A stretch of 64,000 nt of DNA from Escherichia coli (lineage in GTDB: Bacteria; Pseudomonadota; Gammaproteobacteria; Enterobacterales; Enterobacteriaceae): NCBI RefSeq assembly GCF_030013205.1, contig NZ_CP122648.1; one strand, 5' to 3'. The notes beneath the pieces are model-generated. The model was not told the origin of the DNA, ran no database searches, and saw only the letters and a program-made list of their open reading frames with translations. Positions within the stretch are counted from its first letter, which is position 1. Every line of letters starts with the position of its first letter. Below, in pieces: positions 58,186 through 60,140 of the stretch. Both the position numbers and the translations under genes were made by a program.

Positions 58186-58506
58186 TCAGGCGGCTTTCTT
58201 GAGGCAGGCGCTCATAAACTTATTACGATCATCACCTTTCAGAGATTGTTGCGTTGCTTGATTATTACATTCGCGCATCTTTTGCTGCTGTGGCGTCAAA
58301 CTTTTTTCACCAGGCGCAGACTTGCTGTTCTTCAGGCAATCACTCATGTAGGTCTTACGAGCATCCCCTTTCAACGCCTGCGCCGTCGCCTGCTGATTAC
58401 AGGAGGTCATACGCTGTTGTTGCGGGGTTAAGGTTCTCTCGGCAGCGCCGACGGTGGTTAAAAAAACCAGACCGAAAAGCAAGGTAACCAGTAATGTTAT
58501 TTTCAT
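58186..58506 (-). CDS. psiF: Phosphate starvation-inducible protein PsiF
   Basis: Trimmed to MKITLLVTLLFGLVFLTTVGAAERTLTPQQQRMTSCNQQA... (106 aa), two repeated Cys-containing half-domains. Confidence 0.8.
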   Translation of the reverse strand: MKITLLVTLLFGLVFLTTVGAAERTLTPQQQRMTSCNQQATAQALKGDARKTYMSDCLKNSKSAPGEKSLTPQQQKMRECNNQATQQSLKGDDRNKFMSACLKKAA

Positions 58507-58581
58507 AGCACCATCCCTCTTCATGTTTTAACCATGAGCGTGTGCGCCCGTGATCTGCCATTAAGTCTGGTTGCTAACAGC

Positions 58582-58624
58582 AAAAAAACCACCCGGCAGC
58601 GAAAATTCACTGCCGGGCACGGTT
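58582..58624 (-). terminator. Intrinsic terminator/attenuator immediately after phoA
   Basis: Minus strand reads CCCGGCAGtgaattttcgCTGCCGGGtggttttttt directly after the phoA stop. Confidence 0.65.
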
Positions 58625-60040
58625 TTATTTCAGCCCCAGGGCGGCTTTCATGGTGTAGAAGAGATCGGTCTGGTCGGTCAGTCCAACGACATTGGCGGCA
58701 TGTGGGCCATACGCTGCAATACGCAACTGACTGCCGGTATGTTCTTGTGAATCCTCTTCGGAGTTCCCGTAACTCATCACCATCACTGCGCCATCTTTGG
58801 TATTTAGTGCCTGGGTGAGGCCCGGCGCTTTGGTGTCCGGCGCGACAATCTGGCTGGCGTGGGCGTGATCAGCGGTGACTATGACCAGCGTGTTGCCATC
58901 CTTTTTAGCGAATTCCAGCGCACGTTGTACGGCTTCATCGAGATCGACCGTCTCGCCAATTTGCCCACAAGGATTCGCAGCGTGATCCTGTTTATCGATG
59001 GATGCACCTTCAACTTGCAGGAAAAAGCCTTTCTCATTTTTACTCAACAATTCAATGGCTTTGTCGGTCATCTGCGCCAGGGTCGGTACGCTGTCATTAC
59101 GTTGCGGATTAGGCGTACAGGTAACTGCGGGCTTGTCGATATTGCCGTGGTACGTTGCTTTCGGTCCTTGCCAGCGCACTGGCATATTGCCGTCAGCAAA
59201 CAGTCCTAGCAGGGGTTTTTGCTGGTTCGCTTCCGTCACCGCATTCAGTGAGGCAGCATCGCTCACCAACTGATAACCACGCGCCTGTGCCTGTTCACGC
59301 AGCGTTTTTCCCTGCCATTCACCGGCGGTTACCGTTTCAGCAAAGGTTTTTGCGCCGCCGCCAAGCGTAACATCGGCACGAGCGTTAAGCAGTTGTTCGG
59401 TAATCGATCCTCTCCCGCCTTTTTCTAGCGCGTTACCCGGACATTTTTCACTGGTCGCGCTGGGACCGTAGCATTTGCGCGAGGTCACATGCGCCACCAG
59501 CGCAGCGGGCGTGGCATCCTGCAACTCTGCGGTAGAAACGTTACCGGTCGCCAGACCTGCGGCTTTTGCCATTTCCAGAATCGTTGGGTGATCTTTTTCG
59601 TGAATATCGACGCCCAGCGCGCCGTTATAGGTTTTGACACCAGTTGACCAGGCGGTTGCTGATGCAGCCGAGTCGGTGACGTAGTCCGGTTTACCGGTTT
59701 TTTTATTCAGCGCATAGTGAGTGTATTGCCCGGTAAGCGGTAATGCATCGATACCTTTAAAAAAGCCGCCCGCACCTTCGGCATAATTGCGTGCAGCAGT
59801 AATTTCCGAGTCCCCCATCCCATCGCCAATCAGCAAAATAATATTTTTGGCGGGTTTATCGCTAAGAGAATCACGCAGAGCGGCGGTCTGATCACCCGTT
59901 AAGCGGCGAGCACCGCCGGGTGCAGTAATATCTCCCTGAGCAGCCCGGTTTTCCAGAACAGGCATTTCTGGTGTCCGGGCTTTTGTCACAGGGGTAAACA
60001 GTAACGGTAAGAGTGCCAGTGCAATAGTGCTTTGTTTCAC
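58625..60040 (-). CDS. phoA: Alkaline phosphatase
   Basis: Trimmed to the GTG start giving (M)[20 protein letters not shown] signal peptide (471 aa); active-site region [12 protein letters not shown]; the ORF-track frame is extended 14 codons upstream. Confidence 0.9.
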
Positions 60041-60102
60041 TTTATTTTCTCCATGTACAAATACATTAAAAAATAAAAACAAAGCGACTATAAGTCTGGG
60101 CC

Positions 60103-60120
60103 GTGACAGCTTTATGACAG
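60103..60120 (-). promoter_or_regulatory. Pho box in phoA promoter
   Basis: Minus strand reads CTGTCATAAAGCTGTCAC ~60 bp upstream of the phoA GTG, matching the Pho box direct-repeat consensus. Confidence 0.65.
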
Positions 60121-60140
60121 CTGTTGAAAAGATTAACTTT

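Follow-up and report, generated by a model that had tools for sequence, protein, structure and literature searches.

The phoA-psiF gene pair of Escherichia coli poses a question about how two neighboring genes can share one phosphate-responsive promoter: how do transcripts started in front of phoA reach psiF when a hairpin followed by a U tract is positioned between them, and does this site control psiF expression in the manner of an attenuator? We addressed this question in a stretch of E. coli DNA of 64,000 nucleotides (the window), of which a previous sequence-only reading had proposed a Pho regulon cluster with Pho boxes and an attenuator-type terminator. We consider it highly likely that the iraP-phoA-psiF locus found here is native to E. 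coli, and that in it a PhoB-driven phoA promoter is followed by a leaky terminator.

The iraP-phoA-psiF locus and its PhoB-responsive promoter

The following genes are central to our analysis. All features discussed here (phoA, psiF, the Pho boxes, the hairpin and phoB) are located on the minus strand; no strand had been given in the sequence-only reading.

60141..60401, minus strand: iraP coding sequence (open reading frame; Pfam PF10796, E = 3.6e-34; annotation)
58625..60040, minus strand: phoA, alkaline phosphatase precursor of 471 aa (open reading frame, annotation, Pfam PF00245)
58186..58506, minus strand: psiF, phosphate-starvation-inducible secreted protein of 106 aa (open reading frame, annotation, Pfam PF07769)
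44064..44753, minus strand: phoB coding sequence (position transferred to the window from the annotated copy in an identical genome; ATG start confirmed)

The locus is 100% identical to that of swine E. coli strains, where it is annotated as iraP-phoA-psiF with equal phoA coordinates. It finds a match in 5,425 of 5,426 genomes, and the iraP-phoA-psiF annotation recurs in more than 5,400 E. coli genomes. The phoA gene begins with a GTG codon at 60040 and ends with TAA at 58627..58625; the unusual start, already proposed from the sequence, is borne out by the open reading frame, by the annotation of the identical genome, and by the identity of the encoded protein to K-12 PhoA at 466 of 471 residues (99%). 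PhoA matches PF00245 with 459 bits (gathering cut-off 24.4; E = 2e-137), and PsiF, which is 100% identical to its K-12 counterpart, matches PF07769 with 115.5 bits (cut-off 21) and contains two PsiF repeats. The psiF gene is positioned directly downstream of phoA in the same orientation, with a spacer of 118 nt. On the other side, the stop codon of iraP is found 20 nt upstream of the phoA Pho box, and our scan of positions 60040-60141 detected no terminator-like site between iraP and phoA.

The features of phoA-psiF are already known, and the current understanding of the Pho regulon is unchanged by our analysis. The sequence-only reading was right to list them as known features of an intact regulatory backbone. 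Promoter and intergenic sequences are about 98% identical to those of K-12. The core wiring of the Pho regulon (phoA, psiF, phoB and the PhoB sites) is native and undisturbed in the window, and whatever is unusual in other parts of it has ordinary E. coli DNA as its background. The nusB gene, annotated as a partial pseudogene in the closest genome, is intact in the window and identical to that of K-12; a nusB pseudogene is therefore not among the features of the window.

Transcription and translation of phoA, and the control of phoB, involve the following elements.

60120..60103, minus strand: phoA Pho box CTGTCATAAAGCTGTCAC (CTGTCAT-AAAG-CTGTCAC), 18 bp (consensus match, K-12 alignment)
60087..60092, minus strand: -10 hexamer TATAGT of the phoA promoter (read from the sequence; identical to K-12)
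60049..60052, minus strand: Shine-Dalgarno GGAG of phoA, 8 nt before the GTG codon (sequence, K-12 alignment)
44806..44834, minus strand: phoB Pho boxes TTTTCATAAATCTGTCATAAATCTGACGC, two overlapping 18-mers (consensus scan; identical to K-12)

We took a Pho box to consist of a pair of direct 7-bp repeats that resemble CTGTCAT and are separated by a 4-bp A/T-rich spacer. The sequence ahead of phoA has this layout, and a single mismatch distinguishes CTGTCATAAAGCTGTCAC from the consensus CTGTCATAWAWCTGTCAY. Across the 64-kb window, three matches with no more than three mismatches were detected, compared with 0.15 expected by chance, and all three are located at the phoA and phoB promoters. A canonical Pho box in front of phoA had been claimed, and rightly so; the plural "Pho boxes" that had been used for positions 58186-60140 has to be amended to one box made of two heptad repeats. 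The Pho box that had been placed at 44806-44836 in front of phoB is present as well, with its actual end at 44834.

The phoA Pho box fills the -35 position. Its end (60103) is separated by 10 nt from TATAGT (60092..60087), which we take to be the -10 element from what is established for phoA transcription in K-12, and a generic sigma-70 scan returned no -35/-10 pair at this promoter. The box is kept at an equal offset upstream of phoA in related Enterobacteriaceae genera, and the Shine-Dalgarno context ACATGGAGAAAA is likewise kept in related genera.

With respect to the ChIP comparison suggested in the sequence-only reading, ChIP-seq data from K-12 place PhoB on the orthologous phoA box (peak at 401676, score 20) and on the orthologous phoB boxes (peak at 417093; PMC10294691). 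In the single condition studied, low phosphate, the DESeq2 counts for K-12 phoA RNA were 310,112 in the wild type and 1,548 in the phoB deletion strain (approximately 200-fold), and those for psiF were approximately 32,600 and 755 (approximately 43-fold), corresponding to log2 fold changes of 7.6 and 5.4, respectively (PMC10294691). These binding and expression data were all taken from the literature on K-12, whose Pho box carries a T at position 12 (here C); the sequence identities, motif statistics, structure and covariation set beside them come from our own analysis.

Upon phosphate limitation, phosphorylated PhoB would be expected to bind the single Pho box at 60120..60103 and to recruit sigma-70 RNA polymerase, with the box replacing a -35 element 10 nt upstream of TATAGT; translation of phoA would then start from the GTG codon at 60040 behind GGAG. 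The phoB gene (start at 44753) would be autoregulated via its own Pho boxes (44834..44806).

The terminator and the origin of psiF transcripts

The spacer and the psiF leader contain four elements of interest.

58590..58619, minus strand: intrinsic terminator hairpin, core stem CCCGGCAG/CUGCCGGG (stem scan, MFE fold, covariation)
58582..58588, minus strand: U7 tract of the terminator (sequence; TTTTT conserved in the alignment)
58562..58571, minus strand: conserved block ACCAGACTTA of the psiF leader (nearly invariant across genera in the alignment)
58507..58518, minus strand: psiF Shine-Dalgarno and pre-start region AGGGAUGGUGCU (sequence, K-12 alignment, cross-genus alignment)

A strong hairpin plus T-tract had been noticed between phoA and psiF, and our analysis recovers both, at 58619..58590 and 58588..58582. 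The hairpin comprises 13 pairs, 8 of them G-C, with a 4-nt loop, and is followed by a G and seven U (GUUUUUUU); an extended stem spans 58626..58585 and includes the AA of the TAA that ends phoA. Its energy is about -21 to -28 kcal/mol, it is present in the MFE structure, and the intergenic fold reaches z = -4.25 against shuffled sequences. Since a generic terminator scan yielded a count not above chance (4 found vs 3.5 expected), the significance of the hairpin derives from its size, the fold z-score and covariation, and not from the scan count. Among 51 species, 94.5% of the cells are paired, with compensatory changes in 8 of 10 pairs and 59 two-sided cells; none of 500 shuffles was as good, and slid controls reached 30-58%. 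The UGG between the stem and the U tract is invariant in the alignment. In a few Citrobacter loci the U tract is degraded.

Terminator hairpins generally stabilize the mRNA upstream of them, and phoA expression is very high when it is induced in K-12. It is hence conceivable, albeit rather unlikely, that the hairpin is kept mainly as a 3' stabilizer of the phoA mRNA against 3'-to-5' exonucleases, and that its proximity to the stop codon reflects a compact genome and has no effect on termination. The covariation of the stem is compatible with such a role, and such a role does not exclude a leaky terminator. However, it leaves the origin of the PhoB-dependent psiF RNA unexplained, and experiments with lambda tR2 demonstrate how strongly a stop codon 5 bp away affects termination: when the stop codon was moved to this distance upstream of tR2, termination dropped from approximately 90% to less than 10% in a translation-dependent manner (Li et al., Nucleic Acids Res 2016, PMC4824070).

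Where the psiF transcripts originate can be judged from the spacer itself. Our comparative set consisted of 121 phoA loci (120 species besides this one), and psiF follows phoA in 70 of them, all from Enterobacteriaceae. The window scan found no Pho box in the phoA-psiF spacer, and the best match has at least five mismatches in all 70 psiF-carrying loci; a scan of the minus strand of the spacer likewise found no sigma-70-like promoter for psiF. As psiF is PhoB-dependent in K-12 and lacks a Pho box of its own, its PhoB-dependent RNA must cross the terminator. This supports the view, already expressed in the sequence-only reading, that termination within the phoA-psiF operon is partial. Polymerases would meet the hairpin (58619..58590) and U7, a substantial fraction of them would continue into psiF, and the PhoB dependence of psiF would be supplied by the phoA promoter. 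In induced K-12 cells, psiF RNA amounts per nucleotide to approximately 46% of that of phoA, a value that reports steady-state levels and not the termination frequency, and that is also influenced by differences in transcript stability and by psiF being short.

One could alternatively envision an efficient terminator that renders phoA effectively monocistronic, with a separate promoter within the 118-nt spacer driving psiF, whose response to phosphate would be indirect. The hairpin and U7 are indeed strong-looking in isolation, the spacer holds the conserved block ACCAGACTTA that has no assigned role, and in the K-12 phoB deletion strain the per-nucleotide RNA level of psiF is about double that of phoA (755/321 vs 1,548/1,416), so that some PhoB-independent transcription or stabilization must contribute to psiF RNA. 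This scenario is nevertheless improbable: the 43-fold PhoB dependence of psiF in K-12 comes without a PhoB ChIP-seq peak between phoA and psiF (PMC10294691), spacer sequences resembling either a Pho box (70 loci) or a minus-strand sigma-70 promoter are lacking, and phoA-psiF is treated as one operon by the authors of PMC10294691 and likewise in two microarray studies.

Very improbable is a true regulated attenuator whose termination is modulated by a signal through a small RNA, a bound protein or an alternative fold of the transcript: the terminator does reside inside an operon, and a trans-acting factor could be accommodated by the invariant UGG and the conserved downstream block, but the 146-nt context fold retains the terminator and contains no competing antiterminator, the conserved block is located downstream of the termination point and is consequently unable to act as one, there is neither a leader peptide nor a sensor, and no Rfam family was recovered (best E = 0.83, below the gathering score). 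The Rfam scan, covering 57800-60700 with E up to 1, produced only a sub-threshold chance match to ClpQY_promoter (18 bits vs a gathering score of 42). From the designation "attenuator-type terminator" we therefore retain the terminator and drop the attenuator, as no antiterminator, Rfam element or sensor was found. An intrinsic terminator between two cistrons that is constitutively leaky is the more fitting description of the site. Our search of the literature on read-through of the phoA-psiF terminator or on RNA 3' ends mapped there, including phosphate-limited cells, found nothing specific to this site.

A possible role of phoA translation in the leakiness of the terminator

The phoA stop codon is followed 6-7 nt later by the hairpin. 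For loci in which psiF lies downstream, the distance from stop codon to hairpin has a median of 7 nt and is at most 10 nt in 53 of 61 cases, whereas for phoA genes that are not followed by psiF the median is 38 nt (at most 10 nt in 4 of 37), a contrast that is confounded by phylogeny because the psiF loci represent one clade inheriting its spacer. A Cedecea-like subgroup keeps psiF, yet its terminator is positioned 31 nt from the stop codon.

From this arrangement, and by analogy with tR2, we infer with roughly even odds that the leak may be caused by ribosome occlusion at the phoA stop codon. Because the hairpin is only 6-7 nt away and the extended stem overlaps the stop codon, a ribosome finishing translation of phoA would occupy the 5' arm and thereby keep the stem from folding while the polymerase is on the U tract. 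In the pyrBI attenuator, it is a ribosome that prevents hairpin folding. A leak of this type would be fixed and translation-coupled, setting a ratio of PhoA over PsiF, and would not be signal-responsive.

A more far-reaching idea, to which we attach limited confidence, is that the phoA terminator represents an evolutionarily maintained ribosome-gated valve and that, together with ACCAGACUUA masking the psiF Shine-Dalgarno sequence, it fixes a low PsiF:PhoA ratio across the Enterobacteriaceae. Read-through into psiF would then take place mainly on transcripts under translation, as the stem adjoins the phoA stop codon. In loci where psiF follows phoA, the hairpin is kept with compensatory base changes. 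Furthermore, phoA has a non-ATG start (GTG or TTG) in all 52 of the 52 loci that carry psiF downstream, and an ATG start in 38 of the 41 that lack it; the conserved non-ATG start could be part of the same tuned package as the valve and the ACCAGACUUA block.

With respect to masking, the block ACCAGACTTA is complementary to the psiF Shine-Dalgarno region and pairs with 58518..58507 in the MFE fold, and we hypothesize from this model that it may sequester the Shine-Dalgarno sequence. RNAalifold did not predict the sequestering helix of ACCAGACUUA with AAGGAUGGU; it returned only a 4-bp UGGU/ACCA helix devoid of covariation. A direct count of pairs between ACCAGACUUA and AAGGAUGGU gave 69% paired; as both blocks hardly vary, this does not exceed what shuffles give.

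Comparison with K-12 and with other stop-adjacent terminators

The phoA promoter of K-12 (phoAp, b0383) and that of the locus studied here are the same in position, in the 18-bp two-heptad layout, in the 10-nt spacing to TATAGT, in the 5' UTR, in the Shine-Dalgarno sequence and in the GTG start; they differ in 4 bases over the 160 nt extending from upstream of the gene into it. The alignment with the K-12 promoters that had been suggested in the sequence-only reading reveals one differing base in the phoA box: position 12 of the K-12 box (CTGTCATAAAGTTGTCAC) is a T, and owing to the C found in this locus the second heptad is, unlike in K-12, a perfect CTGTCAC. Another difference is a G-to-C change between the box and the -10 hexamer. 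The T-to-C allele is the only regulatory difference from K-12, and it is nearer to the consensus. It occurs in approximately 590 of 5,385 E. coli records (about 11% of complete genomes) and is common to E. albertii and other Escherichia species. No difference was detected in the 120 nt of the phoB promoter (phoBp), a stretch that contains the CATAAT -10 hexamer as well as the tandem Pho boxes, and the window also carries, at 44634-44651, a PhoB site (ATTCACAGCACTGTCATA) that was reported within a gene in K-12.

The phoA-psiF terminator is shared with K-12 in gene order, hairpin, U tract and 118-nt spacer, and nothing functionally notable differs. Two base differences are found in the spacer, none of them in the core stem: the 5' flank of the stem has a T here and a C in K-12, and the other resides in a downstream loop. 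The engineering of phoA fusions and studies of intra-operon tuning might profit from a natural Pho-box allele nearer to the consensus than that of K-12, from the conserved non-ATG start of phoA, and from a covarying, stop-adjacent terminator that passes a large share of transcripts.

With lambda tR2 and pyrBI, the phoA-psiF site has in common a Rho-independent stem that starts within approximately 5-8 nt of a translated gene's stop codon, the arrangement in which occlusion by ribosomes reduced termination at tR2. These are, however, engineered or leader-peptide systems, whereas the upstream gene here is a full-length structural gene, and the metabolite-dependent pausing of pyrBI has no known counterpart at phoA-psiF.

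Pho boxes and promoters of the iraP-phoA-psiF locus

The features examined here are those of the textbook E. coli Pho regulon and as such already known; a preceding sequence-only reading had labeled them accordingly. Among 5,426 complete E. coli genomes, 5,425 match a 2,351-base stretch of the locus and annotate it as iraP, phoA and psiF; swine isolates (K_EC180, O139:H1, ETEC strains) are 100% identical to it. These annotations, the Pfam domains and the identity to the K-12 proteins (466 of 471 residues for PhoA, complete for PsiF) all agree on the assignment of phoA and psiF.

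Features of the locus and of the phoB promoter
60401..60141, minus strand: iraP (ORF listing; Pfam IraP)
60120..60103, minus strand: phoA Pho box CTGTCATAAAGCTGTCAC, one mismatch to the consensus CTGTCATAWAWCTGTCAY
60092..60087, minus strand: TATAGT of the phoA promoter, 10 nt downstream of the Pho box end
60040..58625, minus strand: phoA, GTG start, 471-aa precursor (Pfam Alk_phosphatase)
58619..58590, minus strand: terminator hairpin, 13 pairs (8 G-C), then G and seven U, GUUUUUUU (promoter/terminator scan)
58571..58562, minus strand: leader block ACCAGACUUA (= ACCAGACTTA), downstream of the terminator, nearly invariant across Enterobacteriaceae genera
58507-58518, minus strand: psiF Shine-Dalgarno/start region AAGGATGGTGC, complementary to the leader block
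58506..58186, minus strand: psiF (ORF listing; Pfam, two PsiF repeats)
58145-58170, minus strand: 11-bp GGGUGAGCUAC/GUGGCUCACCC-like hairpin, then GAAAUUUCAU (poor U tract), just 3' of psiF
58084..56969, minus strand: dgcC/adrA (ORF listing)
44834..44806, minus strand: phoB promoter Pho boxes TTTTCATAAATCTGTCATAAATCTGACGC, two overlapping sites, two mismatches each

The entire window runs collinear with positions 457,459-397,965 of K-12, in inverted orientation, except for a few small insertions (20378-22359, 35190-36851, 40229-40933, also 34404-34604 and 61993-62160). The insertions annotated in an identical swine genome include a frameshifted pentapeptide-repeat gene (yajO/pgpA interval), a 485-aa hypothetical protein (acpH/malZ interval) and an IS200C transposase (proY/brnQ interval). 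Between ddlA and iraP, a 67-aa ORF (60583-60786, minus strand) corresponds to the hypothetical protein WP_001317654.1 of the closest genome and is lacking from the K-12 annotation.

The GTG start proposed for phoA is present, with a GGAG Shine-Dalgarno motif 8 nt upstream (sequence reading of 57600-60500), and opens the classical precursor sequence. Searching the entire 64 kb for the Pho-box consensus with at most three mismatches, with shuffled sequence as control, returned exactly three sites, one at phoA and two at phoB, versus a mean of 0.15 in the shuffles, so that both proposed Pho-box locations stand above chance. When aligned to K-12 MG1655, the phoA promoter region differs at four bases and the phoB promoter is identical across 120 nt. 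Published K-12 ChIP-seq data place PhoB peaks at 401676 upstream of phoA (site TGTCATAAAGTTGTCACG, score 20), at 417093 upstream of phoB, and at 417245 within phoB (Fitzgerald et al., mBio 2023, PMC10294691). By virtue of this near-identity, activation of the phoA promoter by PhoB~P, as demonstrated in K-12, would carry over to the window. Inside phoB, ATTCACAGCACTGTCATA (44634-44651, plus strand) is identical to the intragenic site at 417245; intragenic sites of this kind have been described as transcriptionally inert (PMC10294691).

The K-12 phoA Pho box reads CTGTCATAAAGTTGTCAC, with T at position 12 where the window carries C (60109, minus strand); this C yields a perfect second heptad, CTGTCAC, and leaves one mismatch to the consensus versus two in K-12. 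Judged from the sequence, this would be the sole regulatory difference from K-12 at the locus. A 41-base probe covering only this variable site was found as an exact match in 590 of 5,385 complete E. coli records, the remainder being off by about one base; this makes C a naturally occurring minority allele (about 11%). It is shared by E. albertii, E. whittamii and two divergent "E. coli" species representatives, and across genera position 12 varies freely (C 26, G 11, T 10, A 9).

The Pho box of phoA begins 20 nt past the iraP stop codon (60121-60140, minus strand), and our scan found no terminator-like structure after iraP. Transcription running on from iraP could account for the basal phoA RNA that persists without PhoB in the K-12 phoB deletion.

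PhoB-dependent psiF RNA and the terminator after phoA

phoA and psiF are listed as a single operon in K-12 (PMC10294691), in agreement with two microarray papers. DESeq2-normalised RNA counts fall from 318,602 and 301,623 in the wild type to 1,490 and 1,607 in the phoB deletion for phoA (log2 fold change 7.6), and from 36,626 and 28,610 to 852 and 659 for psiF (log2 fold change 5.4; PMC10294691). The phoA-psiF interval contains no PhoB ChIP-seq peak (PMC10294691), and a Pho-box-like sequence was found in the spacer of none of 70 psiF-containing loci, the best match having at least five mismatches. Since psiF is strongly PhoB-dependent and lacks a PhoB site of its own, its induction must derive from polymerases passing the terminator, which supports the partial termination suggested earlier. 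By our own arithmetic on the published counts (gene lengths of 1,416 and 321 nt), induced psiF reaches about 46% of phoA per nucleotide, a ratio of steady-state RNA and not a termination frequency. In the phoB deletion, psiF stands at about 2.2 times phoA per nucleotide; part of this higher basal signal is thus independent of PhoB.

A fold of -49.3 kcal/mol (z = -4.25 versus dinucleotide shuffles) was computed for the 124-nt spacer, with a stem that reaches both A's of the phoA TAA; the two base differences between this spacer and that of K-12 leave the core stem untouched. As the generic terminator scan showed no enrichment (4 found versus 3.5 expected), the case for the hairpin is carried by its size, the z-score of the fold and covariation. 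In an alignment of 51 distinct sequences, from which two Buttiauxella/Dryocola sequences with a different, longer hairpin were left out, 94.5% of cells are paired, and 8 of 10 stem pairs carry compensatory changes (59 cells); none of 500 shuffles did as well, and register-shifted pairing gave 30-58%. The sequence-only reading is thus confirmed in its observations and supported in its interpretation, with the exception of one word: the terminator and its leakiness stand, but neither a competing antiterminator structure nor an Rfam element was found at the locus, which leaves "attenuator" without support in its regulated sense.

Downstream of the terminator, the leader block and the psiF Shine-Dalgarno region can form seven pairs flanking a tandem G-A mismatch, and the Kosakonia block (ACCAUCCUU / ACCATCCTT) is a perfect 9-bp complement of that region. 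On the strength of this complementarity, the block may mask the psiF Shine-Dalgarno sequence. No compensatory covariation between the two was found, a test that is uninformative either way because both blocks hardly vary. The hairpin 3' of psiF may be a weak psiF terminator ahead of dgcC/adrA; the fold of the entire spacer there is not significant (z = -1.4).

Stop-codon proximity of the terminator across species

Scanning one genome per species with a degenerate pattern for the PhoA C-terminal peptide yielded 120 loci, all genuine phoA 3' ends. With the window included, psiF lies within 700 nt downstream of phoA in 70 of 121 sequences, among them Escherichia, Citrobacter, Enterobacter, Klebsiella, Raoultella, Kosakonia, Leclercia, Lelliottia, Trabulsiella, Cedecea and Buttiauxella; it was absent from this interval in Serratia, Rahnella, Erwinia, Dickeya, Pantoea and Rhizobium. 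The Pho box 5' of phoA is kept at a fixed offset. A non-ATG start (60038-60040, minus strand, in the window) is kept in all 52 psiF loci with an available 5' end (GTG 44, TTG 8), whereas phoA without psiF downstream starts with ATG in 38 of 41 loci (Serratia, Erwinia, Rahnella, Rhizobium and others).

A hairpin and U tract were detected after phoA in 61 of the 70 psiF loci, with a median gap of 7 nt between stop codon and core stem (at most 10 nt in 53 of 61), while in loci without psiF the median distance to the first terminator-like site is 38 nt (at most 10 nt in 4 of 37), a contrast that is confounded by common ancestry. In a Cedecea-like group that retains psiF, stop codon and terminator are 31 nt apart. 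The exceptions are mostly degraded forms of the same hairpin, or hairpins split by insertion. In Klebsiella indica, an insertion of about 190 nt splits the hairpin, and a second complete terminator lies just upstream of psiF; in several Citrobacter species the stem is kept but the U tract is degraded, and the spacer holds an additional large hairpin.

The most economical answer to why so strong-looking a terminator would leak is its conserved position next to the phoA stop codon, an explanation that, by our analysis, has an even chance of being correct. A precedent is provided by lambda tR2, where termination drops from about 90% to below 10% when a stop codon is placed 5 bp upstream, and recovers once translation is removed (Li et al., PMC4824070). 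At phoA, 6-7 nt separate the stop codon from the core stem and the extended stem overlaps the stop codon, a geometry within the range of tR2.
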